Positions 1-28,244 of a DNA stretch of 64,000 bases are shown here, in pieces. Every line of letters starts with the position of its first letter. The first letter of the stretch is position 1. The notes beneath the pieces are model-generated. The model did not search any database and was not told the DNA's origin. It saw nothing but the letters and a program-made list of their open reading frames with translations. Source of the stretch: an uncultured virus (IMG/VR IMGVR_UViG_3300010354_009789) (Duplodnaviria; Heunggongvirae; Uroviricota; Caudoviricetes); the IMG/VR virus record IMGVR_UViG_3300010354_009789; one strand, written 5' to 3'. The position numbers and the translations under genes were made by a program.

Positions 1-638
<638 letters not shown>

Positions 639-656
639 TCAAGTTCTCCAAAGAAT

Positions 657-681: not shown

Positions 682-698
682 ATAATATCTATATTAGA

Positions 699-1262: not shown

Positions 1263-1305
1263 ATACGCTCCTTCTATTAATACTGGACCTAACTATTTAA
1301 CTAAG

Positions 1306-9460: not shown

Positions 9461-9477
9461 ACTCTATAGTTTATTAC

Positions 9478-10272: not shown

Positions 10273-10314
10273 ATGCTTAGGATGTTTAACGATAATTATT
10301 TATTGATAAGATCT

Positions 10315-11100: not shown

Positions 11101-11115
11101 CCTTAGTGGTGATGA

Positions 11116-13594: not shown

Positions 13595-13598
13595 AAGA

Positions 13599-14387: not shown

Positions 14388-15241
14388 TAAATTCTCTCCC
14401 ACTCAGTTGGTATTAAATCTTTAGTGTCCTTATCTGCATACGCAGGACCAAACCACATTTTTGGTGCAATAACTTTCTTATTTGGATTAGAGATCAACCA
14501 TGCTCCCCACCAACTCATACTGCTATTAGCAATTATAGCATGATCACACAAAGACATCAAGCACAGATCCACATAAGGAACCAAAGCACCGTCTTCATAA
14601 ACATGCTCAGGTTCTGAGAAGAAGAATCTATCGGGAGCAAAGAATTCCTGCTCTTTGCACCAATCAATTGCATCAGAAAATACGATAATTGGCATGTCTT
14701 CAGGAAATCTACTTAATGCTTCCTCATAATATTCAAGCGGTTGAACAGGATGCTGATCTTGAATATTAACATATGCCCATTTAAATCCCCGCTTATCAGC
14801 AAGGTTGGGATCTCCCCGACGAACATGAAGGAAGGCAACCTCTTGCCCCTCAAACTCACTCATAAATTCCTTACATGGTTCCAACCATTCACTCCGGAAA
14901 ACAAAGTCCTTACGAAGATCTTCTTCAACATGCTTGAAGTATTTTTCAGATTGAAAGAAACCATTGATATTTACATCATCTGGACAATTATCAAACAATT
15001 CCTGATCGAAATGATAATACCTTTCTTGAACAGCATTTTGATTTCTCAACCATGCAACATTTCTATTTGTGGTAAGTTCAAATGCCTCAAGTAGACCATA
15101 ATTATCAATCTGAAGATTTGGGTCGTATGATGGAATCGTATAATCAAATCCGCGATGTGCTGCAATTCCTTTCAGAGCAGCGTATTGAAACATTTGATTT
15201 CCCAAACGTCCCATTCGCCCAATATTATTAAATCCAAGCAT
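14387..15241 (-). CDS. Alpha-1,2-fucosyltransferase (GT11), second copy
   Basis: GRLGNQMFQYA, LHVRRGD, NSSMSWWGAW. Confidence 0.9.
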   Translation of the reverse strand: MLGFNNIGRMGRLGNQMFQYAALKGIAAHRGFDYTIPSYDPNLQIDNYGLLEAFELTTNRNVAWLRNQNAVQERYYHFDQELFDNCPDDVNINGFFQSEKYFKHVEEDLRKDFVFRSEWLEPCKEFMSEFEGQEVAFLHVRRGDPNLADKRGFKWAYVNIQDQHPVQPLEYYEEALSRFPEDMPIIVFSDAIDWCKEQEFFAPDRFFFSEPEHVYEDGALVPYVDLCLMSLCDHAIIANSSMSWWGAWLISNPNKKVIAPKMWFGPAYADKDTKDLIPTEWERI

Positions 15242-16079
15242 GTTTCATTTCCTCAAAGACTTTTGCAATGCCCTTATCAATTGAAGTTTTTGGCAACCAC
15301 CAACCAGTTATATAAGTGTCTGCCTCATTCCTCTTGTCCATTTGAACACTATCTTTAGCGATTCCAGGTTTGATCTTAACATCATAGTATCCAATCAAAT
15401 TGAATTGCCCCTGAATAAGTTCAGCAATTTCTTTGATGGAGGTAGATCTGAATGATGTGATGTGAAGAGGGTCTTCCGGTTTAAAGTCAGTATAATTTTC
15501 CATGATTGTTTCTAGACCTTCGCAACAATCCTCAGCATATAAAAACTGACGTTCCTCTGTTCCATCGGTCATCATTTCAAACTGACGCTCCTCAAATCCC
15601 CTACGGATGAAATCGGTAATTACATGAGATTTTTCGAGATCCTTTTCAATACCATATACATTCCAAAACTTAACAGTCAGACCCTTAAGATTAGTTGTAT
15701 AAAGTTCACCAACTCTCTTCATGACTCCATATGGAGAGTAACTCATATTACTCATCTGAGATGAAGCGAATACAAACCTTTTCTTATATTTTTCAAGAAG
15801 TCCAAATACATTTGCCATCATACGAGTGTTATTGTCGATGAATTGAAATGTATGCTGATACTTCTTCAAATATCGAGAACCGCCAACGTCAAATGCCAGA
15901 AAGAATACGAAATCAGAATTCATAATCCTCTCTTCCAAAAGAGGATTTGGAATCATCCTAAGGTCCTCATGGGGATTGTTTACAAGATCAAACTCATAAA
16001 CATAATGCCCCTTTTTACGCAGATACTCAACAAGATATGCACCAATCTGCCCAGCAGATCCTAATACAGTAATTTTCAT
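15228..16079 (-). CDS. NAD-dependent epimerase/dehydratase
   Basis: MKITVLGSAGQIG, YGVMK, FWNVYG; start trimmed to ATG 16079. Confidence 0.85.
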   Translation of the reverse strand: MKITVLGSAGQIGAYLVEYLRKKGHYVYEFDLVNNPHEDLRMIPNPLLEERIMNSDFVFFLAFDVGGSRYLKKYQHTFQFIDNNTRMMANVFGLLEKYKKRFVFASSQMSNMSYSPYGVMKRVGELYTTNLKGLTVKFWNVYGIEKDLEKSHVITDFIRRGFEERQFEMMTDGTEERQFLYAEDCCEGLETIMENYTDFKPEDPLHITSFRSTSIKEIAELIQGQFNLIGYYDVKIKPGIAKDSVQMDKRNEADTYITGWWLPKTSIDKGIAKVFEEMKHAWI

Positions 16080-16080
16080 A

Positions 16081-17136
16081 TCAACCCAAAACTTTTTTAG
16101 TTTGCTCAGAAATCCAATTATAAGTTCTACGAATTCCCTCTTCCAGTGTCTGAGAGTAATCCCATCCCAGTTTCTCACGAATTAGATCGTTGTTGGAATT
16201 CCTACCACGAACTCCAAGAGGTGCGTTAAGTATATGCATTTTACTTACCACCTTTCCAGAAACTCTTGCGGCAATATCGACCAATTGGTTAATTGTCACC
16301 ATCTCTTCGGATCCGATATTCACTGGACCAATGAAATCAGAATCAACCAGTCTACGAGTTGCCTCTACGCACTCATCAACATATAGGAATGAACGAGTCT
16401 GCTCACCATCCCCCCAGACCTCAATAGCGCCGCCACAGTCGGGCAGATAGGCAACCTTCCTACAGATGGCAGCAGGTGCCTTCTCGCGCCCCCCTCGCCA
16501 GGTCCCCTCTGGACCAAAGATGTTGTGATATCGGGCAACACGCACAGGAATGCCGTGATTTCTATGATAAGCGAAATACATACGCTCGGAGAATAGTTTT
16601 TCCCATCCATACTCAGAATCAGGTGCAGCAGGATACGCAGTCTCTTCTCTACAATCCGGATTCGCAGGATCTAATTGATTATGCTCGGGATAAGCACATG
16701 CAGAGGAAGAATAGAAAACTTTGGTCTTGTTTACGTCTTTATGAGAATTCAAGTCACGAACACACTCAAGAACGTTTAGATTGATTGAGCAAGAATTATG
16801 CATAATTTCAGCATCGTTTTCGCCACTAAATACAAATCCAGCGCCACCCATATCGGCAGCAAACTGATAAATTTCATCAAAAGTATCAACATATTTTCCA
16901 GGAACAAAGTTATAAAAATTTCCCAGATATCCCTTAAACTGAACACACTTCTCAACAAATGAAACATCACGCAGATCCCCACGGATAAATTCATTTGCCT
17001 CAGATTTAGAGAATTCTGGATACTTAATATCAACACCGCGAACCCAATATCCTTCAGATCGCAGTCTCTTTACCATGTGACTTCCAATAAAACCACCAGC
17101 ACCAAGAACAAGTGCCGTCTTCCTATACTCACTCAT
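16081..17136 (-). CDS. GDP-mannose 3,5-epimerase-like NAD-dependent epimerase (WcaG family)
   Basis: GAGGFIGSH, FAADMGGAGF, SSSACAYP, YGWEK, GGREKAPAAICRK, GVRGRNSNN. Confidence 0.9.
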   Translation of the reverse strand: MSEYRKTALVLGAGGFIGSHMVKRLRSEGYWVRGVDIKYPEFSKSEANEFIRGDLRDVSFVEKCVQFKGYLGNFYNFVPGKYVDTFDEIYQFAADMGGAGFVFSGENDAEIMHNSCSINLNVLECVRDLNSHKDVNKTKVFYSSSACAYPEHNQLDPANPDCREETAYPAAPDSEYGWEKLFSERMYFAYHRNHGIPVRVARYHNIFGPEGTWRGGREKAPAAICRKVAYLPDCGGAIEVWGDGEQTRSFLYVDECVEATRRLVDSDFIGPVNIGSEEMVTINQLVDIAARVSGKVVSKMHILNAPLGVRGRNSNNDLIREKLGWDYSQTLEEGIRRTYNWISEQTKKVLG

Positions 17137-17162
17137 AGAAACCATAGTGTCTGATCATATTT

Positions 17163-17211: not shown

Positions 17212-17323
17212 TAGTCGCGCCCCGCCACCACCAATTTTTTGACTGGTAATTGGAAACCAGGCAGGAGAGAGATCCCATCCGCACCAACAGGCATATTTAA
17301 TGTCCCTTATCCTGTGGGGACCG
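17212..17323 (-). ncRNA. wcaG/manA-like cyanophage structured RNA
   Basis: Two UGGYG elements (TGGTGCGG, TGGTGGCGG); pseudoknots CTGGT/ACCAG with CCAATT/AATTGG and GTCCC/GGGAC with ACAGG/CCTGT; directly upstream of a WcaG-family epimerase. Confidence 0.7.
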
Positions 17324-18309: not shown

Positions 18310-18543
18310 TCAGTCGTCTTTTACATAACAGGGAACCCTATCTGGATCCAACCAACGAGCATACTGATCATCTTCCATTGCGGTAAGACATTGAAGTTGA
18401 TTATCAAAAAGGTAAATGTCTCTCCAACGCTTCGTATAATAATCCTGCTTTTGCATACGATAATCAGGTTTACCGTTGATTTCTAGGATGCCACATTCAA
18501 CGAATCTGTATCCATCACGCTCAAGAAGAACTTTTGGTTTCAT
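18310..18543 (-). CDS. Hypothetical protein
   Basis: ORF coupled to upstream gene by ATGA overlap. Confidence 0.7.
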   Translation of the reverse strand: MKPKVLLERDGYRFVECGILEINGKPDYRMQKQDYYTKRWRDIYLFDNQLQCLTAMEDDQYARWLDPDRVPCYVKDD

Positions 18544-18755
18544 GCGACTTCCAGAGATTCAAGGTCCTGATAAACATATTCCATGAGCATTTCATAGTCA
18601 TCCAAAGGATCACCAGAAAAAACTACACCTTCATTTTCATAATAACGACGGACCTTTTTATAAAGTTTTGGATTCTTTACATCAAGATAAAAGTCACCGT
18701 TTGCAGCACCTCGAAGGGTTTGCAGGTCTTTCTTGAATTTAGAAACGATGGTCAT
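18540..18755 (-). CDS. Hypothetical protein
   Basis: ORF directly downstream of promoter 18779..18807. Confidence 0.75.
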   Translation of the reverse strand: MTIVSKFKKDLQTLRGAANGDFYLDVKNPKLYKKVRRYYENEGVVFSGDPLDDYEMLMEYVYQDLESLEVA

Positions 18756-18778
18756 GTCTAATAATTGATTACCTTTTT

Positions 18779-18807
18779 ATTATAGGTGCTTGACTGAATG
18801 AAGTCAA
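18779..18807 (-). promoter_or_regulatory. Sigma70-type promoter with upstream palindrome
   Basis: TTGACT-17-TATAAT; GACAGTT-N4-ATCTGTC at 18816..18833. Confidence 0.8.
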
Positions 18808-18836
18808 GTGTGTGGGACAGTTTGTGATCTGTCCTA

Positions 18837-18909
18837 TACCCGTGGTCGGATTCGAACCGACCCTGAAAAGATTTTAAGTCTTCTGCCTCTTCCGCTGGGC
18901 TACACGGGC
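18837..18909 (-). tRNA. tRNA-Leu(TAA), short variable arm
   Basis: Cloverleaf GCCCGTG...GAAGA CT TAA AA TCTTT...GGTTCGAATCC. Confidence 0.9.
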
Positions 18910-18915
18910 ATTAGG

Positions 18916-18988
18916 TGCTCCTTGAGGGGATCGAACCCACCTTAGCCGAATTATGAGTTCGGTGCATTCGCCAGATTGCTAAAGGAGC
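18916..18988 (-). tRNA. tRNA-Met/Ile2(CAT)
   Basis: GCTCCTT acceptor, CCGAA CT CAT AA TTCGG. Confidence 0.9.
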
Positions 18989-19073
18989 AGCACCACTACG
19001 GCATTCTGGTTTATCTTTCCAGCGCAAATAGTGGGTTGGCGTCTTTCTATGCTATCTGCATAACGACTACCAA

Positions 19074-19145
19074 TAGGGATGCCTGGACTTGAACCAGGAT
19101 GACTCCGTTATAAGCAGAGCGCATTTACCTTTATGCGACACCCCC
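19074..19145 (-). tRNA. tRNA-Ile(TAT)
   Basis: CTCTG CT TAT AA CGGAG; T-loop GGTTCAAGTCC. Confidence 0.88.
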
Positions 19146-19154
19146 ATAAATGCA

Positions 19155-19328
19155 CTATTGTGCATCAGTATTGTCTACCGTATGTATTCGCATAAATTCA
19201 TCCGTTACTGGCACCATTACTGCCGTTTTGCCAGTATCATCAAGGATTCCAATAGACTCTCCTGTTTCAACTCGATCCATCATTTCATCCCAACGTTCAA
19301 GGAATTCGTCAACAGAATAGGTTTTCAT
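19155..19328 (-). CDS. 57-aa Phd/YefM antitoxin-like protein
   Basis: Manual translation MKTYSVDEFLERWDEMMDRVETGESIGILDDTGKTAVMVPV...; below ORF-track cutoff. Confidence 0.6.
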   Translation of the reverse strand: MKTYSVDEFLERWDEMMDRVETGESIGILDDTGKTAVMVPVTDEFMRIHTVDNTDAQ

Positions 19329-19349
19329 TTAAAAAGATAAAGAGTTAAG

Positions 19350-19426
19350 TGGTCGGAATGATAGGATTCGAACCTACGGCCCCTGCTTCCCAAAAGCAGT
19401 GCTCTACCAAACTGAGCTACATTCCG
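19350..19426 (-). tRNA. tRNA-Pro(TGG)
   Basis: CGGAATG acceptor, CTGCT TT TGG GA AGCAG, encoded CCA. Confidence 0.95.
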
Positions 19427-19440
19427 TTATTCACATCATA

Positions 19441-19695
19441 CTACTTCTTGTTTTTCTTGTCAAGTTCCTTCTGTCTGCGATTCAGTTCTTGCTTGACTGC
19501 TTTGCCGCCACTGCGATCTACCACAAGTTTTTTAACTTCCTTTTTAGTTGGTTTCTCACCAACAGGTGCAGTAGCAGACTGAAGAGTGTAACGCTGCACT
19601 CCATCCACTTCACTATAAGTTCCAGGAACTGCATGTGGAGGAACGCCAGGTTTTTTTCCCTCACAGATCTCATAAAACTCTCTGAAAGTAAGCAT
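19441..19695 (-). CDS. Basic hypothetical protein with capsid-targeting-like N-terminus
   Basis: MLTFREFYE start; ATAAATA late-promoter-like element upstream. Confidence 0.65.
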   Translation of the reverse strand: MLTFREFYEICEGKKPGVPPHAVPGTYSEVDGVQRYTLQSATAPVGEKPTKKEVKKLVVDRSGGKAVKQELNRRQKELDKKNKK

Positions 19696-19708
19696 CTCTG
19701 TTCTCTGG

Positions 19709-19870
19709 TCACTTATGATTATATTTATCAAGCGGTGCCCAGTGTTGCCAGTTGTATTTGTGAATTGCCCAAATTCCTAGAATAGGAACAAAGACTAATA
19801 GAGTGCCCATAATCCCCAAAGAAACTGGGTTTTGCATCACACCCCGAACGAACAATTGAACCAGATGCAT
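19709..19870 (-). CDS. 53-aa membrane protein
   Basis: Manual translation MHLVQLFVRGVMQNPVSLGIMGTLLVFVPILGIWAIHKYNWQHWAPLDKYNHK; AGGAGG RBS. Confidence 0.7.
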   Translation of the reverse strand: MHLVQLFVRGVMQNPVSLGIMGTLLVFVPILGIWAIHKYNWQHWAPLDKYNHK

Positions 19871-19962
19871 GAGTAGTGACCTCCTTTCCGATACTTACAT
19901 CATATCCACCCGCATGAAGGTGGGGGGTTTTAATGGACAGTTCCCCCACCGGCACAGGGAGT

Positions 19963-19989
19963 TTAGCGAACGTGATGTCCACCAAACAT
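19963..19989 (-). pseudogene. Duplicated 3' remnant of gnd (MFGGHHVR*)
   Basis: ATGTTTGGTGGACATCACGTTCGCTAA encodes the same octapeptide and stop as the gnd C-terminus at 20456..20482. Confidence 0.7.
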
Positions 19990-20055
19990 AGTTTTGTAAA
20001 TGAAAAAAAAAACTCCGCATTTCTGCAGAGTTTAGCAATTATTTTTTTATAAATC

Positions 20056-20409
20056 TCATTCAACAACAGGTGCTTCTTCAACAACTGGTGCTTCAAGAGC
20101 GCGTAGAATTTCTTCAAGCGCAGCATCATCTGCAGCATCAGCATCTAGAAGTGCCCGAAGTCTTGCTGCTTCAGCAACGGCTGCATCAGCAGCGGATCTT
20201 GCCTCAGCAGCTTCCGCATGAGCAGCAGCAACAGCAGCATCATCCGCAGCATCAGCTGCAAGGGCGGATGCAAGTCTTTCTCTTAGTTCAGCATTTTCAA
20301 CTAAAAGACCATCATTAGCACCTCTAAGAGCAAGAAGGACATTTTGAACACGAACAGCGAAATTTGCCATAATTTTTTTAAGCAATGGTAATATAGAGTT
20401 AAACATCAT
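20056..20409 (-). CDS. Ala-rich coiled-coil hypothetical protein
   Basis: Low-complexity A/D/E helix; ATAAATA element upstream. Confidence 0.65.
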   Translation of the reverse strand: MMFNSILPLLKKIMANFAVRVQNVLLALRGANDGLLVENAELRERLASALAADAADDAAVAAAHAEAAEARSAADAAVAEAARLRALLDADAADDAALEEILRALEAPVVEEAPVVE

Positions 20410-20455
20410 GATATGTTAAATATCATTTCCATCTATTTATCGAAATCAATTTTAT

Positions 20456-21508
20456 TCATCTAACATGATGTCCTCCGAACATGTATCGCATTCCATTCAG
20501 AACACGATTTGCGAAATTCCCTAACCTGCGACTCTCAAACCGCGCAAATAACGCACTAGAAAGGACAGGAGCGGGAACCCCAAGGTCCACAGCGGCAGAA
20601 ACAGTCCAACGACCCTCACCGCTGTCGGAAACCCCTCCATCGAATGATTCAAGTCCACCATCCCGGCGAAGAACAGCAGCGGTAAGGTCAAGTAACCAGC
20701 TGCCAACAACACTACCGCGACGCCAAAGCTCAGCCACTTCAGCAACATCAATATCATATTGATAACTCTCCGGATCCGCCATAGGAGCAACTTCTGCATC
20801 ACCTTCTCTGACATACTGCGACCCAAGATTTGCGTTATGCAGAATATTAAATCCTTCAGCGTATGCTTGCATGATTCCATATTCAATTCCGTTATGAACC
20901 ATTTTCACGAAATGTCCTGCCCCAGGTTCGCCACAATGCAACCACCCAAGTTCTGCTGAAGTTATATCTGAGCCATAATCGGTGCGCGGTGCGGTACTGA
21001 TGTCTGGGGCGAGCGCGTTGAAGATGGGGCTACAATAGGAGACTGCAGAATTTCTGCCTCCAACCATAAGACAGTATCCACGCTCCATACCGTACACACC
21101 ACCAGAAGTACCACAGTCAATATATTCGATGCCATACTGATCATGAAGCCTTTCTGCTCTACGGCGGCTCTCCTTAAAATTGCTATTGCCATGATCAATA
21201 ATAATATCTCCACGGCGACAAAATGGTAGTAATTCATTCAGCGTGTCCTCCACAGTTTCTGCCGGAACCACCAGCATATAAACAGATCTTTCCTCACCAG
21301 AAAGAACCTTTGTTAGTTGCTCAATACTTGTAACGACACCACTCACATATCCATTTTCATATGCTTCACATGCCGCCTCATAATTCCTGCGATATCCCCA
21401 CACAGAAATATTTTCACCAGATTCTTGCATCAGTCGCTTTGAGCGGGCAATGATCCTACGGGACATTCCTTCACCCATACGACCAAGACCAATCATTCCA
21501 ACTTTCAT
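20456..21508 (-). CDS. gnd: 6-phosphogluconate dehydrogenase (decarboxylating)
   Basis: GMIGLGRMG, IIDHGNS, DCGTSGG, GHFVKMVHNGIEYG, DSGEGRW. Confidence 0.97.
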   Translation of the reverse strand: MKVGMIGLGRMGEGMSRRIIARSKRLMQESGENISVWGYRRNYEAACEAYENGYVSGVVTSIEQLTKVLSGEERSVYMLVVPAETVEDTLNELLPFCRRGDIIIDHGNSNFKESRRRAERLHDQYGIEYIDCGTSGGVYGMERGYCLMVGGRNSAVSYCSPIFNALAPDISTAPRTDYGSDITSAELGWLHCGEPGAGHFVKMVHNGIEYGIMQAYAEGFNILHNANLGSQYVREGDAEVAPMADPESYQYDIDVAEVAELWRRGSVVGSWLLDLTAAVLRRDGGLESFDGGVSDSGEGRWTVSAAVDLGVPAPVLSSALFARFESRRLGNFANRVLNGMRYMFGGHHVR

Positions 21509-21509
21509 A

Positions 21510-21788
21510 CTAATACCCCTCATCATCAAGTTCATCTTCATAAGTGGAAGGTTCTTCAAACAACTCTTCCATCTTTTGCTTTAGAATTCTATCTTGCAAT
21601 TCCTTTAGGTCATCATCTTCTAGCTTCATCACAATCAATTCTTCTCCTGCTTTAACTCCACGCATCTCCGGGTGTATTTTATACTCTGGACACTTGATGT
21701 ATCCGTGAGTTTCTTTCATGACAATAATTCCATGAATGACCATACTGAGGATCACAAGGAATAATACCAGAAAGATGATGGGAATCAC
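21510..21788 (-). CDS. Membrane-anchored hypothetical protein (DUF2973-like)
   Basis: N-terminal TM helix, IHPEM...GEELIV. Confidence 0.65.
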   Translation of the reverse strand: MIPIIFLVLFLVILSMVIHGIIVMKETHGYIKCPEYKIHPEMRGVKAGEELIVMKLEDDDLKELQDRILKQKMEELFEEPSTYEDELDDEGY

Positions 21789-21973
21789 ATTCCGTGCCTC
21801 ATGGCGTTTACAACGGTAATCAATCCGTGAGTATAAAACGCAAGGACGGTTGTTCCAAGCACAGAACTAATAAAAGTTGCTGTTCGATTGTGTTTCGTCA
21901 TCGCTTTATCGATGGCCCTATCAATCATTTCTTGAATTTCACTTTTCTCACCATCATTCATGATCATTACCAA
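21785..21973 (-). CDS. Hypothetical protein
   Basis: EIQEMIDRAI..KHNRTA followed by a TM segment. Confidence 0.65.
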   Translation of the reverse strand: MVMIMNDGEKSEIQEMIDRAIDKAMTKHNRTATFISSVLGTTVLAFYTHGLITVVNAMRHGM

Positions 21974-22126
21974 TTACAGAAACTTTTTATCAAGAATATT
22001 TTCTAATGGGTCCTTCCCGGACTTTAGAATTGCACACGCTCTTGTGTAGAACATGTTATTGGTATTTCCAGAAGCTTCCATAGCCTCCTTAACCTTTTTC
22101 CAATTTTCTAGAGTATGTGAATCCAT
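21974..22126 (-). CDS. 50-aa hypothetical protein
   Basis: Manual translation MDSHTLENWKKVKEAMEASGNTNNMFYTRACAILKSGKDPL... Confidence 0.65.
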   Translation of the reverse strand: MDSHTLENWKKVKEAMEASGNTNNMFYTRACAILKSGKDPLENILDKKFL

Positions 22127-22146
22127 TTAATTATCCTAAAGGACAA

Positions 22147-22229
22147 CGGAGAGAACAGGAATCGAACCTGCGAAGCTTTAACACCCAGCCGCTTTCAAGG
22201 CGGTGTCCTCGACCAACCGGACCCTCTCC
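22147..22229 (-). tRNA. tRNA-Ser(TGA)
   Basis: CCGC CT TGA AA GCGG, long variable arm, G73. Confidence 0.93.
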
Positions 22230-22239
22230 AATTATAACG

Positions 22240-22488
22240 TCAACGAACTTCGAAGTCAAGTCTCTTAACTTTTCGTTGTCTTCTTGATTCTTGATATGCA
22301 AGATCTTCATTTGATAAAACACCACTCTTCTTTGTGGTATGTGGTGAGTTTATCATAACCACTTTGCTCAAGTCAACTGCTGAGATTTTATCCTGAGCAA
22401 TTGTTGTCATATTATCACAACCACATGAAATAGGTCTTGATAGATAATTTTCTATTTCCCTATTGCACGCCTTACATCTAACTCTCAT
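22240..22488 (-). CDS. Zn-ribbon hypothetical protein
   Basis: CKAC...CGC; TATAAATA upstream at ~22511. Confidence 0.75.
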   Translation of the reverse strand: MRVRCKACNREIENYLSRPISCGCDNMTTIAQDKISAVDLSKVVMINSPHTTKKSGVLSNEDLAYQESRRQRKVKRLDFEVR

Positions 22489-22562
22489 GGTCCCATTATG
22501 TTTAACTACTTATTTATACATCAAAACCGCATTAATGCGGTGACAGGAAATATTCAATTGTA

Positions 22563-22634
22563 TGGGCGATACTGGATTCGAACCAGTGACCTATTCCTTG
22601 TAAGGGAACCGCGCTACCGCTACGCTAATCGCCC
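22563..22634 (-). tRNA. tRNA-Val(TAC)
   Basis: GTTCC CT TAC AA GGAAT. Confidence 0.95.
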
Positions 22635-22645
22635 ATTTTGTATAT

Positions 22646-22849
22646 TTAAAGATCTACTGGGCGATGTCCCAACAGAAGATCATAAAGTCTAGAGACTTTT
22701 TTATGCTTCTCTTCATAATACTTAGAAAGAGACTGAACCTCTGCAAGAAGTTCTTCATAAACACGACGCGAATCATAATTCTCATCGTCAACATAATCAA
22801 GAAGAAGATCACTCAACCTCTCTTTACGCAGTTCTTCAAATTTATTCAT
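22646..22849 (-). CDS. Hypothetical protein
   Basis: ORF in operon with 22855..23130. Confidence 0.7.
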   Translation of the reverse strand: MNKFEELRKERLSDLLLDYVDDENYDSRRVYEELLAEVQSLSKYYEEKHKKVSRLYDLLLGHRPVDL

Positions 22850-22854
22850 AGTAA

Positions 22855-23130
22855 TTATGAAAGATTAATTGCAAGATCCAAAGCACGTTTTGCTGATTGA
22901 GCGATTGGATATCCAAGATGAAAACCATCTTTGTCGTATTGATACTCCTCAGATCTATATAATTGAAACCCAAGAAGATCATCTGTTGGAGAACCAACTT
23001 CCCAAGTAGATACTGGTCTCACAAAGTAAATACCAGCATTAGCAACTACTCTCCACCCAATCTCAACAAAACCTAATCCACGAAGAGCACATTCCAATTT
23101 TAATGAATACCCTGCATCGTGCAAATTCAT
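22855..23130 (-). CDS. Hypothetical protein
   Basis: ORF with ATAAATA element upstream. Confidence 0.7.
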   Translation of the reverse strand: MNLHDAGYSLKLECALRGLGFVEIGWRVVANAGIYFVRPVSTWEVGSPTDDLLGFQLYRSEEYQYDKDGFHLGYPIAQSAKRALDLAINLS

Positions 23131-23179
23131 ATGTTCGGTTTACCGTAACTTATGAATTTATTTATCCCCAGGAAGGGGA

Positions 23180-23251
23180 AGCGGCTGATCGGATTCGAAC
23201 CGACGACGTTCTGCTTGGAAGGCAGACATTCTACCACTGAATTACAACCGC
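23180..23251 (-). tRNA. tRNA-Gly(TCC)
   Basis: TCTGC CT TCC AA GCAGA, U73. Confidence 0.95.
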
Positions 23252-23255
23252 GAAT

Positions 23256-23332
23256 TGGGGGCGGGAGTTGGATTTGAACCAACGCTCTGCGGCTTATGAG
23301 ACCGCCGTGATACCTGACTTCACTATCCCGCT
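23256..23332 (-). tRNA. tRNA-Met(CAT), initiator-like 1:72 mismatch
   Basis: AGCGGGA/TCCCGCC acceptor, GCGGT CT CAT AA GCCGC, CCA end. Confidence 0.85.
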
Positions 23333-23337
23333 ATATT

Positions 23338-23530
23338 TGGGTGGGTGGTGAGATTCTATCATACTCACAATCAGGAGGTCGCACTGATAGTAACGTTTCC
23401 TGACACTTTCGGATCCCTAGGTCTTATTGGGTTCTGCAACTCTCAGTCTCCTGGTCTTGCAGCGGGCACCACCCCTATCCTAATATACATTATCCCGTGC
23501 ATGACCGCATAGGATTTTTCTGTCACACCC
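23338..23530 (-). ncRNA. Putative ~190-nt structured RNA with tRNA-like ends
   Basis: GGGTG/CACCC closing stem, GTGAG/CTCAC T-arm-like hairpin, several internal helices; no ORF in track. Confidence 0.55.
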
Positions 23531-23553
23531 TTTGGAAATCCGTCGATCTCCAA

Positions 23554-23624
23554 TGGAGAATAGGAGAATCGAACTCCTAATAAGTGCTTGCAAAGCACCC
23601 GTTATACCGTTTAACTAATCCCCC
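23554..23624 (-). tRNA. tRNA-Ala(TGC)
   Basis: GGTGC TT TGC AA GCACT; G3:U70. Confidence 0.93.
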
Positions 23625-23632
23625 ATGTTTTT

Positions 23633-23661
23633 ATTTTAAACGACAATCATGAGATTGTCAA
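23633..23661 (-). promoter_or_regulatory. Sigma70-type promoter
   Basis: TTGACA-17-TAAAAT. Confidence 0.7.
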
Positions 23662-23734
23662 GCCCCCCATCGGACTTGAACCGATGACCTACGGTTTACA
23701 AAACCGTTGCTCTATCCAGCTGAGCTAGAGAGGC
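23661..23734 (-). tRNA. tRNA-Thr(TGT)
   Basis: ACGGT TT TGT AA ACCGT. Confidence 0.95.
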
Positions 23735-23791
23735 AAGTGAGTCGGATATGATAATCCCGACTCTATTTACCAGAGACACTCTCCCTGGCAA

Positions 23792-23863
23792 CTGCTCAGG
23801 CTGGATTCGAACCAGCGACAAATCGGTTAACAGCCGACGACTCTACCGCTGAGCTACTGAGCA
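23792..23863 (-). tRNA. tRNA-Asn(GTT)
   Basis: GTCGG CT GTT AA CCGAT, G73. Confidence 0.95.
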
Positions 23864-23871
23864 TTAATTTG

Positions 23872-23940
23872 TCGTGGATTGGGAATCGAACCCAAACTCC
23901 GTGTGTTGTCCACCCGTCATGACCACTAGACTATCCACGT
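23872..23940 (-). ncRNA. tRNA-like RNA with degenerate anticodon arm
   Basis: CGTGGA/TCCACG acceptor, D-arm GTC-TAGTGGTCAT-GAC, T-arm TTGGG-TTCGATT-CCCAA; no canonical anticodon stem-loop. Confidence 0.65.
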
Positions 23941-24004
23941 TTGATGGGTTAAGTGTGATATGCCTCATAAGGACATAACAGGGACTTAACCTCTGTCTTC
24001 TTAT

Positions 24005-24060
24005 ATAGTAAGAGACTTTTGATGGGTTGTCAACTCCCATGTGACAGTTCATGAACTGTC
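24005..24060 (-). promoter_or_regulatory. Sigma70-type promoter with upstream perfect palindrome
   Basis: TTGACA-17-TACTAT; GACAGTTCATGAACTGTC at 24043..24060. Confidence 0.75.
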
Positions 24061-24531
24061 CTATCCCATTACATATTCTTTCCACTCTGAAACACCACTC
24101 TTTTGAACATCCAAATGAACCTTATTGAAAGGAGCAGATGGAGTTTTTCTCAGAATCATGTTACTTTCAGAAAGAAGTTTATTCCCCTTTTTGAGATTGC
24201 ATTTGGAGCAACAGGTCACTAGGTTGTCCCATGTATCCTGTCCACCCTTTGAACGGGGAATTATATGGTCCAAAGTGAGATCCTTTTCGGATCCACAATA
24301 CTGGCACTCATGATCATCCCTCTTATATATAGATGCTCTAGTTGGATAAGCATTCTTTGCAAGATGATAGGGAATCCTCACATAATTGACCAAGCGTATT
24401 ACACGTTTAGTGATAAGTCTTGCTTTTTGTTTGAAAATCAAAACTATAGCTCGCTTCCAATTAGTGAAGTGTAGTGGTTCATAAGAACTATTCAGAACCA
24501 ATATCGTTGAATGTGGTTCTACTAATTCCAT
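24061..24531 (-). CDS. HNH endonuclease (McrA-like)
   Basis: LVLNSSYEPL, RDDHECQYCG, TLDHIIPRSKGG, NLVTCCSKCNLKK. Confidence 0.9.
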   Translation of the reverse strand: MELVEPHSTILVLNSSYEPLHFTNWKRAIVLIFKQKARLITKRVIRLVNYVRIPYHLAKNAYPTRASIYKRDDHECQYCGSEKDLTLDHIIPRSKGGQDTWDNLVTCCSKCNLKKGNKLLSESNMILRKTPSAPFNKVHLDVQKSGVSEWKEYVMG

Positions 24532-24567
24532 ACCTGTTACACCGTTTTCTGATATTTAGTAAACAAA

Positions 24568-24644
24568 TGGCACCCTCTGCAGGATTTGAACCTGCGACTT
24601 CTTGGTTCGTAGCCAAGCACTCTATTCCGCTGAGTTAAGAGGGC
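24568..24644 (-). tRNA. tRNA-Arg(ACG)
   Basis: CTTGG CT ACG AA CCAAG, CCA end. Confidence 0.95.
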
Positions 24645-24663
24645 AGGTATAGTATCCAAAACT

Positions 24664-24671
24664 TATAAATA
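24664..24671 (+). promoter_or_regulatory. T4-type late promoter TATAAATA
   Basis: Exact TATAAATA ~25 nt upstream of the + strand HNH ORF. Confidence 0.7.
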
Positions 24672-24696
24672 GTTTAGGAGACTTTGAATAATAAAA

Positions 24697-25053
24697 ATGC
24701 CGTCAGAAGAATGGTTATCAGATCCCAACAATCAAGAAAGAAGGAGGGAAGCAAGAAGAAAGTGGTATCATAATAATAAAGAAAAAAGTTGCGAAAAAAT
24801 AAAACAACGAAAAAAAGAGATAAAAGAATGGTTTTCTAATTACAAAGGAAACTTAAAATGTGAACTTTGTGGAGAAAATCATCCAGCAACTATTCAATTT
24901 CACCACACAAATCCGAAAGAAAAAGAATTAGAGATTTCTATTGCCATACATAACGGATGGTCAATTAATAAAGTATTAGAAGAAATCAATAAATGTCAGG
25001 TTTTGTGTGCTAATTGCCACTTTAAATTGCATTATGATTTGGCGAAGGGATAG
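24697..25053 (+). CDS. HNH homing endonuclease-like protein
   Basis: CELCGENHPATIQFHH...KCQVLCANCHFKLH; AT-rich, antisense to the tRNA array. Confidence 0.85.
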   Translation: MPSEEWLSDPNNQERRREARRKWYHNNKEKSCEKIKQRKKEIKEWFSNYKGNLKCELCGENHPATIQFHHTNPKEKELEISIAIHNGWSINKVLEEINKCQVLCANCHFKLHYDLAKG

Positions 25054-25114
25054 GGACTTGAACCCTAACTAGAACTTTTGGAGAGTTCCGTGCTACCAAT
25101 TACACTATCCCAAC
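25040..25114 (-). tRNA. tRNA-Trp(CCA) with mismatched acceptor stem
   Basis: GAACT CT CCA AA AGTTC; acceptor GTTGGGA/TCCCTTC has two U-U pairs. Confidence 0.85.
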
Positions 25115-25115
25115 A

Positions 25116-25192
25116 TGGTGCCCGATACAGGATTCGAACCTGTAAAACCTTGCTTCTAAGGCAAGTATGTATGCCAATTCCATCAATCGGGC
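25116..25192 (-). tRNA. tRNA-Leu(TAG), short variable arm
   Basis: CTTGC CT TAG AA GCAAG, A73-CCA. Confidence 0.9.
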
Positions 25193-25194
25193 AA

Positions 25195-25268
25195 TACCGA
25201 AGGTGGGACTCGAACCCACAACATACTGATTTTGAGTCAGTCACCTCTTCCAATTGGATCACTTCGGC
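25195..25268 (-). tRNA. tRNA-Leu(CAA), short variable arm
   Basis: ACTGA CT CAA AA TCAGT. Confidence 0.9.
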
Positions 25269-25269
25269 T

Positions 25270-25345
25270 TGGTATCCGTGAGAGGACTCGAACCTCCAAC
25301 AAATAGATCCTTAGTCTATTGCCTCTTCCATTGGGCTACACGGAC
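25270..25345 (-). tRNA. tRNA-Leu(AAG), short variable arm
   Basis: ATAGA CT AAG GA TCTAT, A73-CCA. Confidence 0.88.
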
Positions 25346-25346
25346 T

Positions 25347-25420
25347 TGGTTCCAGAACTAGGACTCGAACCTAGATAGACGCCTTCAAAGGGCGGTGTCC
25401 TGCCATTAGACGATTCTGGA
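25347..25420 (-). tRNA. tRNA-Gln(TTG)
   Basis: CGCC CT TTG AA GGCG; U1:A72. Confidence 0.9.
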
Positions 25421-25421
25421 T

Positions 25422-25500
25422 TGGAGTTCAGGGTGGGATTCGAACCCACGGTGATAGAAGTTTTGCAGACTTCCGCTTTCGACCACTCAGCCACCTGAAC
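25422..25500 (-). tRNA. tRNA-Cys(GCA)
   Basis: GAAGT CT GCA AA ACTTC, U73-CCA. Confidence 0.93.
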
Positions 25501-25532
25501 ATTGAACTATCCGGAATTTCCGGATAGTTGAG

Positions 25533-25604
25533 AGCCCTTAGTGAGAATCAAACTCACGACCTCATTCTTACCAAGAATGCGTTCCATCACTGAACTATAA
25601 GGGC
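25533..25604 (-). tRNA. tRNA-Thr(GGT)
   Basis: CATTC TT GGT AA GAATG; variant T-loop TTTGATT. Confidence 0.85.
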
Positions 25605-25606
25605 GG

Positions 25607-25680
25607 GGTGTAGGACGGGACTTGAACCCGCATAAACCAGATTCACAATCTGGCGCATTGACCAATTATGCTACCTACAC
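25607..25680 (-). tRNA. tRNA-His(GTG)
   Basis: CCAGA TT GTG AA TCTGG, C73. Confidence 0.93.
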
Positions 25681-25681
25681 A

Positions 25682-25755
25682 TGGCAGTAGATGGATTTGA
25701 ACCACCGACCATAGGAATATGAGACCCGTGCTCTGCCAAACTGAGCTATACTGCC
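25682..25755 (-). tRNA. tRNA-Met(CAT) with weak anticodon stem
   Basis: GGCAGTA/TACTGCC acceptor; CGGGT CT CAT AT TCCTA. Confidence 0.75.
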
Positions 25756-25759
25756 AAGG

Positions 25760-25844
25760 CGGAGAGTAGAGGATTTGAACCTCTGGAAGTTTTACCTTCA
25801 CGATCTTTCCAAGATCGCACCATAAGCCACTCGGACAACTCTCC
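25760..25844 (-). tRNA. tRNA-Ser(GGA)
   Basis: CGATC TT GGA AA GATCG, long variable arm. Confidence 0.93.
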
Positions 25845-25848
25845 AAGG

Positions 25849-25937
25849 CGGAAGTGGTTGGATTTGAACCAACGGTGCCAATTACTTGACACGGAATCTT
25901 AGCAGGATTCTGCAATAAGCCGCTCTGCCACACTTCC
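25849..25937 (-). tRNA. tRNA-Ser(GCT)
   Basis: GAATC CT GCT AA GATTC, long variable arm. Confidence 0.93.
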
Positions 25938-25940
25938 ATA

Positions 25941-26012
25941 TGGAACCGACAAGATTTGAACTTGTGACCGCTCGGTTATCAGCCGAGTGCTCTACCACTG
26001 AGCTACGGTTCC
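25941..26012 (-). tRNA. tRNA-Ile(GAT)
   Basis: CTCGG CT GAT AA CCGAG. Confidence 0.95.
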
Positions 26013-26082
26013 ACAGGCAAGTTTATGGAAACTTGCAACCTCCAACCCGTTTTTATAGAGGTGTGTTGCTTCCACCCTCTAA

Positions 26083-26156
26083 TGGGAACAGTCGGATTTG
26101 AACCGACAACACCAAGATCTTCAATCTCGTGCTCTACCAATTGGAGCTATGTCCCC
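26083..26156 (-). tRNA. tRNA-Phe(GAA)
   Basis: CGAGA TT GAA GA TCTTG. Confidence 0.93.
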
Positions 26157-26169
26157 ATATCGTAGGTAT

Positions 26170-26252
26170 ATCATTTGAGGGGATTCGAACCCCCACTGCC
26201 GCCCCCAAAACGCAAGTGCTATGGCGGAGTGCTACCGTTACACTACAAATGA
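26170..26252 (-). ncRNA. tRNA-like RNA with 19-nt anticodon loop
   Basis: TCATTTG/CAAATGA, GTGT/GCAC D-stem, CCGCC/GGCGG stem closing ATAGCACTTGCGTTTTGGG, T-loop TTCGAAT. Confidence 0.75.
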
Positions 26253-26339
26253 TGTCCTTACGTTGCTTACTCCTTAATCATACTCGTTGGATTTACTTGT
26301 TGGACCTAATCGTTGGAATACTAACTGCGTTCAACTTAT

Positions 26340-26413
26340 TACCCTGTCTCGACTTGAACGAGACTGTTTTCTATAGCCTTTGCGTTTGTTAGTAATAAGC
26401 ATACTGACAGGTT
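26340..26413 (-). ncRNA. tRNA-like RNA lacking an anticodon arm
   Basis: T-arm TCTCG-TTCAAGT-CGAGA, CCTG/CAGG acceptor-like pairing, AGTA/TACT D-like stem. Confidence 0.45.
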
Positions 26414-26468
26414 TCTTTTACCTTTCAGTTTTCCGTTCAACCCAACTTTCTGAAGAAGTTTGGGCAAG

Positions 26469-26542
26469 TCGGAATGACAGGATTCGAACCTGCGACAACT
26501 GGTTCCCAAAACCAGAGCTCTACCAAACTGAGCTACATTCCG
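26469..26542 (-). tRNA. tRNA-Pro(TGG), second copy
   Basis: CTGGT TT TGG GA ACCAG. Confidence 0.95.
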
Positions 26543-26617
26543 TGGTAGTCCTAACGGGATTCGAACCCGTGTTCTCACCTTGAAAGGGTGATGACCTAAC
26601 CGCTAGTCGATAGGACC
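26543..26617 (-). tRNA. tRNA-Glu(TTC)
   Basis: TCACC CT TTC AA GGTGA, CCA end. Confidence 0.95.
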
Positions 26618-26621
26618 ATGA

Positions 26622-26812
26622 TGAGAGGGGTATCTCGCAGCGGAGTAGTGAGCGCAACGCAAGTCATAGATCTACTCCAATCGACTTGCGGCTAGGGCAA
26701 GAATCCCTCCCCAATTCCAGTTTGCCTAACCTCCCCTACCGAAACTGGCAACAGTTTGGGGACAGTTCTGCTACAACCGCCAAGGAGGAGCACTCCATCG
26801 GCAGCGTAGCAA
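26622..26812 (-). ncRNA. Putative ~190-nt pseudoknotted RNA
   Basis: Long GC hairpin, TCCCCAA/TTGGGGA plus CCAGTTT/AAACTGG helix, CGCAAGTC/GACTTGCG with loop GGAGTAG complementary to downstream CTACTCC. Confidence 0.55.
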
Positions 26813-26884
26813 CGACCCATAGGGGATTCGAACCCCTGATACTTCTTAGACAGAGAAGCGTGATCACCACTTCACTAATGGGCC
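26813..26884 (-). tRNA. tRNA-Asp(GTC)
   Basis: CTTCT CT GTC TA AGAAG, G73. Confidence 0.93.
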
Positions 26885-26959
26885 TGGAGCGGACTACGGG
26901 ATTTGAACCCGTGACATCAACCTTGGCAAGGTTGCATTCTACCACTGAACTAAATCCGC
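26885..26959 (-). tRNA. tRNA-Gly(GCC)
   Basis: CAACC TT GCC AA GGTTG, U73-CCA. Confidence 0.95.
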
Positions 26960-26963
26960 AAGG

Positions 26964-27054
26964 TGGGAGAGGAGGGAATTGAACCCCCGATGGTTCCGAT
27001 GTAACGGTTTTACAGACCGCAGCCACACATATTGCCAACAGTAGCCACTCTCCC
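26964..27054 (-). tRNA. tRNA-Tyr(GTA) with enlarged D-loop
   Basis: GCGGT CT GTA AA ACCGT, long variable arm. Confidence 0.88.
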
Positions 27055-27092
27055 GAACAGTTTATGTTTAACGACCGAACTGTGGCGGTACA

Positions 27093-27167
27093 TGGGGCAT
27101 CTGGGATTCGAACCCAGGACTAACCGATTAAGAGTCGGATACTCTGACCTGACTGAGTTAATGCCCC
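27093..27167 (-). tRNA. tRNA-Lys(CTT)
   Basis: CCGA CT CTT AA TCGG. Confidence 0.93.
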
Positions 27168-27170
27168 TTA

Positions 27171-27243
27171 TGGGTCTGGTGGGACTCGAACCCACGATCC
27201 ACCGGTTAAAAGCCGGGTGCGCTCGCCGCTTAGCTACAGACCC
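27171..27243 (-). tRNA. tRNA-Lys(TTT)
   Basis: CCGG CT TTT AA CCGG. Confidence 0.93.
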
Positions 27244-27301
27244 AATAAAGGTTTAAATTTTCAAGGTTCATATGGGGTCTCGTTCCCCCGCCAACTTTTT
27301 G

Positions 27302-27356
27302 ATCATACCACCGCCGGTTCTCTTGGAGGGTTGGAGTGGACACTTCGAAAACTGTC
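27302..27356 (-). promoter_or_regulatory. Promoter (-10 TATGAT) with upstream palindrome, heading the main tRNA array
   Basis: GACACTT-N4-AACTGTC at 27339..27356, 31 nt from TATGAT. Confidence 0.6.
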
Positions 27357-27365
27357 ACAGGCAAC

Positions 27366-27400
27366 AAAAAAGGGGAGGAAACTTTTGGTTTCTCTCCCCT
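27366..27400 (-). terminator. Rho-independent terminator
   Basis: AGGGGAG-AGAAAC...GTTTC-CTCCCCT hairpin plus T-run. Confidence 0.75.
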
Positions 27401-27423
27401 GTTCTTGCTTTATGGATTACATC

Positions 27424-27531
27424 TTACATGTGTTTATCCATACCCGCGAACAGAGGAGCGCCCTCAATATGCTGCCACGCACGGCCGCTATCGAGATTGC
27501 TAAACTTAATTGTGGGCATTGGATAAGACAT
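27424..27531 (-). CDS. 35-aa late peptide
   Basis: MSYPMPTIKFSNLDSGRAWQHIEGAPLFAGMDKHM between TATAAATA (27553..27560) and a terminator. Confidence 0.5.
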   Translation of the reverse strand: MSYPMPTIKFSNLDSGRAWQHIEGAPLFAGMDKHM

Positions 27532-27590
27532 TGTTTTCGACCTAAGTGAAAGTATTTATAAGGTTTTAATTTTTGCGTTACAAAAATTAA

Positions 27591-27663
27591 CAGGCACGGC
27601 AGGACTCGAACCTGCAGTCGGCAGCTTAGAAGGCTGATGCATTATCCATTATGCTACGTGCCC
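27591..27663 (-). tRNA. tRNA-Arg(TCT)
   Basis: CAGC CT TCT AA GCTG. Confidence 0.93.
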
Positions 27664-27671
27664 ATAAAACA

Positions 27672-27700
27672 ATCATATCAGACTTTGATTTGATTGTCAA
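27672..27700 (-). promoter_or_regulatory. Sigma70-type promoter
   Basis: TTGACA-17-TATGAT directly upstream of tRNA-Arg. Confidence 0.75.
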
Positions 27701-27760
27701 GGGGTTGGACCAACCGATTTAAGTCTTGTGACGTGTGGTGGTCTCCTCCCTCACTCTTTA

Positions 27761-27815
27761 ATAATACACGGTTTTGGGGATCCGGTCAACCCTAGTGGAC
27801 AGTTTCTGAAGTGTC
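27761..27815 (-). promoter_or_regulatory. Sigma70-type promoter with upstream palindrome
   Basis: TTGACC-17-TATTAT; GACAGTT-N4-AAGTGTC at 27798..27815. Confidence 0.7.
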
Positions 27816-28244
27816 ACTCAGGTGGTCCACAAACAGAATTCCGTTCAAATGATCAATCTCATGCTGAACAATTCTTGCACTAAGATCATTATAGACCTCA
27901 ACGCACGGTTTTCCTTTTAGATTACGAAACTTAACTTTAACTTGTTGAGATCTCCAAACCTGACCAAAAGTATTTGGACAACTCAAACACCCCTCTTCAG
28001 ATAGAGAATTCTCAGAACTCATCCAAACAATCTCAGGATTGATCATTACAACTTCATTTCCAGAATCACTGATAATGATAATTCTTTTAGAAACTCCGAT
28101 TTGGGGTGCTGCAATACCAATTCCACTATGTTCGTTCATAAGTTTACTCATGTTAAAGGCCAAACACCTGATGGTGTCATCAACCTTTGCCACACGAGTA
28201 GCAGCTCTTCTGAGGACTTTTGATCCGATTGTTTGTAATTCCAT
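27792..28244 (-). CDS. def: Peptide deformylase
   Basis: GIGIAAPQIG, EGCLS, QHEIDHL. Confidence 0.96.
   Translation of the reverse strand: MELQTIGSKVLRRAATRVAKVDDTIRCLAFNMSKLMNEHSGIGIAAPQIGVSKRIIIISDSGNEVVMINPEIVWMSSENSLSEEGCLSCPNTFGQVWRSQQVKVKFRNLKGKPCVEVYNDLSARIVQHEIDHLNGILFVDHLSDTSETVH

Follow-up and report, generated by a model that had tools for sequence, protein, structure and literature searches.

The manA RNA (Rfam RF01745) was described as a riboswitch candidate by Weinberg et al. 2010 (PMC2864571). The sources given there are marine metagenomes, T4-like cyanophages and two gamma-proteobacteria, and the copies lie commonly in potential 5′ UTRs; an alignment and a consensus drawing are given in the supplements of that paper. 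Rfam assigns the family the type Cis-reg, and Rfam 14 gives 48 significant base pairs for it (PMC7779021). No assignment of a ligand or cellular role was found in literature searches. Rfam, as quoted in a 2013 paper (PMC3692125), states that manA often adjoins tRNAs, and tRNA-adjoining manA copies are already in print.

A cryo-EM preprint (bioRxiv 10.64898/2026.07.01.735769) reports manA octamers and decamers and a cage of 60 subunits. The pentamers from which the cage is built are held by kissing loops between molecules, L5-L7′ and L8-L9′ (or L3-L8′). The assembly was obtained in vitro with about 3 mg/mL RNA and 10 mM Mg in the folding step, and with family members other than the one described here. 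The word tRNA has no occurrence in the preprint. Two other phage RNAs, ROOL and GOLLD, form nanocages and are encoded close to the tRNA islands of phages and prophages (Kretsch et al. 2025, PMC12286853; review PMC12990946).

The manA copy described here lies in a stretch of 64,000 nt from an uncultured virus (IMG/VR record IMGVR_UViG_3300010354_009789; Caudoviricetes), which is referred to in its full length as the window. The window is a T4-like cyanophage segment, with genes for a DNA polymerase, a UvsX-like recombinase, a DnaB-like helicase, a primase and both ribonucleotide reductase subunits, and further genes for a gnd-like dehydrogenase and a peptide deformylase.

Family identity and relatives

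A default Rfam scan of the whole window gives 33 matches, which are 31 tRNAs, one wcaG RNA and one manA RNA. The manA match is at 23338-23552 on the minus strand, with 98.2 bits (gathering score 55.2; E 3.8e-24), and it spans model positions 1-192 of 192. A covariance model of our own, R1, gives 90.4 bits at the same positions and has no other match in the window; the manA copy number within the window is one by R1 and one by Rfam. The full-length match, an outcome that the first-pass annotation had itself named as refuting, disposes of its description of the RNA as an unrecognised ncRNA. Membership of 23338-23552 in RF01745 is practically certain. The RNA is a divergent yet complete member of a described family, already known and not new, and because Rfam names the family at default settings the finding is not a discovery and has no value as one.

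The conserved core strings of the family, GUGAC.GAA.AA, GGUGGUG in loop L5, ACC in loop L7 and UUGU before helix P9, are present in the window copy, and the columns of these strings are invariant in alignments of the relatives. All nine helices and the complementarity of L5 with L7 and of L8 with L9 are likewise shared with the family.

Relatives were collected from several sources. A BLAST search of a phage collection with the manA part gave cyanophage S-CREM1 as the sole match (83.6% identity over 98% of the query); the other relatives were found by pattern scans and covariance models. The S-CREM1 paper annotates manA at 10215-10429 (PMC9964418). This copy scores 96.6 bits with the Rfam model. 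In the S-CREM1 record it stands 1 nt after tRNA-Leu and is followed, at 0 nt, by tRNA-Asn. A first sample was made by scanning viral contigs with the 5′ consensus pattern, which gave at least 119 stretches, 80 of them examined. Rfam finds manA in 67 of the 80, with 60 full-length copies (104.9-196.9 bits) and 7 cut by contig ends. The window and S-CREM1 copies have the lowest scores among the full-length copies of this sample.

A second scan with the pattern common to the window, S-CREM1 and L029, one of the sampled loci, gave 37 loci with 24 distinct sequences. All 37 have R1 matches, at 83-113 bits. The closest of these relatives are 85-87% identical to the window copy, and one of them (L137) has the same order of tRNA-Ala, manA, 5 nt and tRNA-Met. 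By these sequence comparisons the window copy belongs to a divergent manA subgroup. It differs from the family consensus in having a P6 about 17 nt longer and all four L8-L9 core pairs re-coded, and it is among the lowest-scoring full-length members (98 bits against 105-197 in the first sample). The 5′ UTR position, which is a typical context of the family and not a structural criterion, is not found here; the window copy has tRNAs on both sides.

Secondary structure and loop-loop complementarity

The elements of the RNA are as follows.

23338..23552, minus strand: manA RNA (RF01745), 215 nt (Rfam, R1, fold z -3.04)
23533..23552, minus strand: P1 hairpin, UGGAGA...UUUCCA, the TTGGAGATC/GATTTCCAA hairpin of the first-pass annotation (Rfam alignment and MFE)
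23526..23530, minus strand: 5′ strand of P2, GGGUG, paired with CACCC at 23343-23347 to close the 188-nt core (Rfam alignment)
23464..23475, minus strand: P5 (GGG/CCC) with loop L5, GUGGUG, in which GGU is complementary to ACC of L7 (Rfam alignment)
23434..23462, minus strand: P6 (CTGCAA/TTGCAG and CAG-GAGA-CTG), with a GAGA (GNRA) loop at 23447-23450 (Rfam alignment and MFE)
23415..23431, minus strand: P7 with loop L7, ACC at 23420-23422 (Rfam and subgroup alignments)
23370..23404, minus strand: P8, outer stem GUCAGGA/UCCUGAU (P8a), with L8 CUAUCA at 23385-23390 (Rfam alignment)
23348..23368, minus strand: P9, GUGAG/CUCAC, with L9 UGAUAG at 23356-23361, complementary to L8 (Rfam alignment)
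23338..23342, minus strand: unpaired 3′ tail ACCCA (sequence and Rfam), followed by AAUAU (23333-23337) and tRNA-Met

The coordinates and neighbours in the first-pass annotation are right, and the RNA (by Rfam) and its two tRNA neighbours (by ARAGORN) are on the minus strand. Its estimate of about 190 nt agrees with the span bounded by the two P2 strands, 188 nt; P1 and the tail bring the total to 215 nt. Seven of the eight helices it had drawn are consensus manA helices, present in the Rfam alignment and in the minimum free energy (MFE) fold. The eighth, ATCCTA/TAGGAT, is in neither, and its strands are parts of P3 and P4.

The MFE of 23338-23552 is -68.6 kcal/mol (z -3.04), and none of 200 shuffled sequences folds as stably. 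The MFE fold recovers P1, P2 and P4-P9, with the P3 hairpin in a slightly shifted register. It should be noted that P6, P7 and P8a of the window and S-CREM1 copies are wrongly aligned by R1 and in its alignment, A2, with S-CREM1 L8 placed among insertions. The helices from P6 to P8a were therefore taken from the Rfam alignment, together with the subgroup alignment A3.

The covariation among relatives that the first-pass annotation had asked for is found in column-wise counts compared with shuffles. The 71-row model alignment has pairing letters in 90.7% of its cells, compared with 77.6% after shuffling, and two-sided changes at 47 of its 64 pairs. None of 500 shuffles attains the observed values, and pairing falls to 34-44% when the register is slid. 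The subgroup alignment was made with MAFFT from 25 sequences and was given the structure that the window copy has in its Rfam alignment. Here 89.3% of cells pair, against 40-47% in slid registers, and both partners have changed at 31 of 63 pairs. On four of five measures 0 of 500 subgroup shuffles reach the observed value, and for the fifth, further pair types, 121 of 500 do; these tests take their structure from one of the aligned sequences and are inflated by the kinship of the sequences.

Individual helices differ in how well they pair within the subgroup. P2 (helix 2) is 100% paired in the 25 sequences with 3 of 5 pairs changed on both sides, P6 (helix 8) is 100% paired, and P8 (helix 10) is 98.9% paired with all 7 of its pairs changed on both sides. 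P7 is weak, with 3 firm pairs in the window copy and 67.5% pairing in the subgroup. The letters of the P1 stem differ between the window and its relative L137, and the pairing is kept. The Rfam E value, the fold z and the co-varying pairs of the relatives together show a structure beyond chance.

The consensus has two loop-loop complementarities, L5 UGGU with L7 ACCA, and L8 with L9. L5-L7 is 99-100% paired in the 71-row and subgroup alignments and almost invariant, so that it cannot co-vary. The L8-L9 core pairs do vary in the family alignment: pair 1 is CG in 50 rows, AU in 9, UA in 1 and other in 2; pair 2 is UA in 54, AU in 6 and other in 2; pair 3 is GC in 52, UA in 5 and other in 5; and pair 4 is UA in 55, UG in 3, CG in 1 and other in 3. 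Within the subgroup two-sided changes are seen at 5 of 6 pairs (e.g. AU 11/CG 10, CG 14/UA 11), and 89.3% of the L8-L9 cells pair, compared with 15-45% in a slid register. In the window the majority CUGU/ACAG gives way to CUAUCA/UGAUAG, with all four core pairs changed on both sides, and S-CREM1 has UUGUCA/UGACAG. The L8-L9 columns were picked after sight of the sequences, and these counts are supportive and not blind. A per-sequence comparison of the longest L9 duplex with shuffled L9 gave p mostly 0.1-0.99, a test without power, and column-wise co-variation was used in its place.

L8/L9 occurs as 8 haplotypes in the 25 sequences of the subgroup. In the 71-row alignment both loops have letters in 62 rows, and these rows hold 19 haplotypes. 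The L8-L9 co-variation shows selection for pairing, and is the same for an intramolecular or an intermolecular contact. Natural selection thus acts on a contact that the preprint describes, from in vitro structures, as intermolecular.

A pseudoknot of L5 (GGUGGUG) with the 3′ strand CACCACC was also considered and was rejected; the 3′ position co-varies with the 5′ strand of P2, and L5 is invariant.

The tRNA array and the context of manA copies

ARAGORN finds 34 tRNA genes in the window, all on the minus strand and between 18836 and 27664. The part of this array that contains manA is listed below in the direction of transcription.

23633..23661, minus strand: sigma-70-like promoter, TTGACA, 17 nt, TAAAAT, 11 of 12 consensus positions (consensus scan only)
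23553..23625, minus strand: tRNA-Ala(tgc), without an encoded CCA (ARAGORN; Rfam tRNA 23554-23624, 62.5 bits)
23338..23552, minus strand: manA RNA, as above
23256..23332, minus strand: tRNA-Met(cat), 5 nt 3′ of manA (ARAGORN and Rfam)
23180..23251, minus strand: tRNA-Gly(tcc), next in the unit (ARAGORN)
23130..22855, minus strand: first open reading frame (ORF) after tRNA-Gly, 91 aa, no PHROG match (ORF list and PHROG search)

The promoter motif is likely the start of a unit of tRNA-Ala, manA, tRNA-Met, tRNA-Gly and the ORF. The tRNA-Ala discriminator is followed by a U and then by P1 of manA. The gap between tRNA-Ala and manA is 0-1 nt; the gap from manA to tRNA-Met is 5 nt. The first ORF starts 207 nt 3′ of manA, past the two tRNAs.

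A sequence nearly identical to this manA is present in an RNA library, which is short of proof of transcription. A 194-nt contig from a freshwater metatranscriptome run covers 23341-23530 with 3 mismatches at a depth of 4.2; it is a single contig from one run and one study, DNA carry-over is possible, and contigs cannot show RNA ends. Six RNA runs hold small shares of the sampled words only. In three of four mapped RNA runs the contigs match the tRNA parts and then diverge from the window; being unlike the window beyond the tRNA parts, they are assigned to other organisms. At least half of the sampled words of 23150-23750 are held by eight public runs from seven studies. Seven of these runs are labelled as freshwater, sediment or aquatic metagenomes and one is without an organism label; such labels are not evidence.

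Several other features were seen in the window. A wcaG RNA (RF01761) at 17217-17315 (minus strand; 54.1 bits, gathering score 42) adjoins the 5′ side of ORF 17145..16081 (phrog_540), which encodes a nucleotide-sugar epimerase, the classic setting of wcaG; wcaG is also near manA in S-CREM1. Positions 1-17145 (minus strand) hold a long sugar-nucleotide and glycosyltransferase run, with three phrog_540 epimerase-like ORFs and a phrog_2644 glycosyltransferase among the ORFs scanned. An HNH endonuclease ORF (phrog_16726, E 1.6e-57) lies inside the tRNA array at 24061-24531 on the minus strand.

The 197-nt gap 23864-24060 has a fold z of -4.22. Within it, at about 23868-23940 (minus strand) and directly upstream of tRNA-Asn, are a tRNA-type T arm, GGGUUCGAUUCCC, and matching acceptor-like ends. 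No anticodon stem could be paired by eye there, neither ARAGORN nor Rfam calls a tRNA, and the sole match is of 15 nt at the 3′ end of the tmRNA model (E 0.14). The segment may be a decayed tRNA or a tRNA-like element.

Two ARAGORN calls on the minus strand are unusual, a 93-nt “tRNA-Arg(gcg)” at 26962-27054, which has no Rfam tRNA match and is matched by the tmRNA model alone (22.5 bits), and an 85-nt “tRNA-???” with a two-base anticodon call at 26169-26253 (Rfam tRNA 48.2 bits). The non-tRNA gap 27245-27589 (minus strand) has a fold z of -4.60 and a strong terminator-like hairpin. Fold z values of -2.55, -1.87 and -0.97 were obtained for the minus-strand gaps 26618-26812, 26254-26467 and 24645-25039, and these four gaps have no Rfam match at E up to 1.

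The context of manA differs between the main group and the subgroup. Most manA copies are not beside tRNAs: a same-strand tRNA no more than 13 nt away is found at only 8 of the 67 loci of the first sample (80 examined of at least 119 stretches), 3 upstream and 5 downstream. Main-group copies are preceded by a sigma-70-like promoter (at least 9 of 12 positions, mostly 11-12), with the -10 box ending 7-11 nt before P1, at 53 of 59 loci, one of the 59 having too little upstream DNA. In the subgroup a tRNA lies within 8 nt upstream at 32 of the 36 loci with a 5′ flank, or in 22 of 23 distinct sequences; its identity varies (Arg-tct, Gly-tcc, Ala-tgc or Asn-gtt), and it lacks an encoded CCA. The sole exception among the distinct sequences shows a TATAAT box where the tRNA would be. 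Because a promoter or a tRNA 3′ end directly precedes P1, the 5′ end of the RNA appears to be at P1 in both groups, set by the transcription start in the main group and by the tRNA 3′ end in the subgroup.

Downstream, a tRNA is also present within 5 nt at 6 of 37 subgroup loci. The sampled copies with tRNAs on both sides are seven, those of the window, S-CREM1, L130, L132, L137, L148/L154 and L157. Many subgroup members have an ORF 10-15 nt downstream, and the family members away from tRNAs lie 9-180 nt upstream of ORFs, in keeping with the cis-regulatory role first proposed for manA.

Three further observations concern the main group and its surroundings. Recurrent downstream ORFs, identified by eye from their N-termini, are gp32-like (MSF..LKK...ERLWKPEVD) and transaldolase-like (MKIFLDTADT). 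The upstream unit often ends in a terminator-like hairpin whose loop contains the -35 box (GAGGG..TTGACA..CCCTC and then a T run; loci L002-L081). A glutamine riboswitch (RF01739, 35-39 bits, gathering score 35) is found 200-460 nt from manA on the same strand at five loci (L006, L034, L047, L049 and L069).

The Cis-reg type given by Rfam and the potential 5′ UTR positions of Weinberg et al. 2010 suggest that manA could be a cis-acting leader or riboswitch. Such an element would sense a ligand or a condition and control the transcription or processing of tRNA-Met, tRNA-Gly and the 91-aa ORF. Consistent with this, an ORF start lies within 50 nt downstream in 32 of 62 full-length sampled copies, the gp32-like and transaldolase-like neighbours recur, main-group copies begin at a promoter, and in 9 of 59 main-group copies a U-rich tail after P2 may be an attenuator. 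However phage genomes are compact, so that closeness to an ORF says little, and the literature found reports no ligand. In the window, moreover, two tRNAs stand between manA and the first ORF, no terminator-like site was found by motif scan on the minus strand between 23661 and 22753, and no sequestered ribosome-binding site was found after manA; the seven copies with tRNAs on both sides also argue against a leader. The cis-regulatory reading is viable for the family at large and fits the window copy poorly, and it is considered unlikely as an account of this copy.

The nearly constant position of subgroup copies just 3′ of a tRNA of varying identity would also be expected of a passenger or spacer of phage tRNA arrays, which would aid the maturation of neighbouring tRNAs or protect the precursor and be excised as an RNA without a role of its own. 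However most family members are without a tRNA neighbour and keep the same core and loops, and about 60 conserved pairs together with loop-loop pairing far exceed the needs of a spacer. This explanation appears improbable.

The ends of the RNA had been called tRNA-like in the first-pass annotation, and this is not borne out. ARAGORN finds no tRNA or tmRNA in 23338-23552. A permissive Rfam search of 18500-28000 (E up to 1) gives 50 matches, of which manA alone overlaps the RNA; in this search no tmRNA or RNase P model overlaps it, in agreement with the absence of tmRNA and RNase P signatures noted earlier. The tails after P2 vary among relatives (ACCCA, ACATT, ACAAA, ACCAC, CACCA, TCTTT), with no conserved NCCA. 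The hairpin taken for T-arm-like is P9, and in place of a seven-nt T loop on a 5-bp stem over a 7-bp acceptor, the RNA has an L9 of 11-12 nt, which pairs with L8, and a P2 of 5 bp. A tRNA mimic, in which the P2/P9 stack and an ACC-like tail would be read as acceptor and T arm by RNase P, the CCA-adding enzyme or a synthetase, is thus very improbable: the P9 3′ strand does continue straight into that of P2, as a T stem does into an acceptor stem, the first tail base is A in most copies outside the top group, and CMCompare gave a 13-bit link between the tRNA and manA models (PMC3692125), but its authors judged that link presumably false, the stack has 10 bp and not 12, and the tail, L9 and the searches are as just described.

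Release, assembly and known systems

The reading preferred here is that tRNA processing frees an RNA which then self-assembles, and taken as a whole it is held to be rather probable. The manA RNA would be transcribed within a tRNA polycistron from the early-type promoter ahead of tRNA-Ala. Since tRNA-Ala has no encoded CCA, its 3′ processing would be of the RNase Z type, and would most likely free manA on one side. The 3′ end of manA would be made by RNase P, through its cut at the 5′ end of tRNA-Met. This would leave a free RNA of about 215-225 nt, as distinct from a protein-gene leader. Release as a free RNA, which we infer from the layout, is likely. The first-pass annotation had proposed a tRNA-processed ncRNA, and that part agrees with the position between tRNA-Ala and tRNA-Met; its word “unrecognised” fails.

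Once free, the RNA probably acts in trans as a self-assembling particle, as has been proposed for ROOL and GOLLD, because the L5-L7 and L8-L9 complementarities are kept. Assembly in infected cells is the more tentative part of this proposal and is regarded as possible, by analogy with the in vitro assembly of other family members.

A manA copy with tRNAs on both sides is a clean test case for what manA RNAs do. Such a copy cannot serve as a protein-gene leader, and this argues that at least this branch of the family works as a free RNA. A cultured relative with the same layout exists in S-CREM1, which grows on Synechococcus CB0101, and direct experiments are feasible.

Among known systems, the 3′ external spacer sRNAs of bacterial tRNA operons and mascRNA/MALAT1 are cases in which a neighbouring tRNA gives an RNA a precise end by way of RNase P or RNase Z. 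To our knowledge none of these is related to manA in sequence or fold.

The small stable non-tRNA RNAs of the T4 tRNA region, RNAC and RNAD, with which the first-pass annotation had compared this RNA, are a fair analogy, drawn from their published descriptions only (PMC3014915, PMC9697503). RNAC and RNAD are classed as late RNAs (PMC9697503), whereas manA of the window stands behind an early-type promoter. They appear to be a looser analogy than ROOL and GOLLD.

Like manA, ROOL and GOLLD are described as phage or prophage RNAs that are often near or inside tRNA arrays and that form closed homo-oligomeric cages. They are three to four times longer than manA, and their reported cages are 8-mers and 14-mers and are not built from pentamers. 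The ROOL and GOLLD models of Rfam have no match to 23338-23552, either at default settings or at E up to 1, and the likeness is one of context and behaviour only. A further and more doubtful proposal is that the manA subgroup lying flush with tRNAs is a third phage tRNA-array RNA after ROOL and GOLLD, cut out by RNase Z and RNase P, forming closed particles in infected cyanobacteria, with L8-L9 as a lineage-specific address and a role tied to tRNA or translation. If this were true, the L8-L9 address would stop the particles of co-infecting phages from mixing.
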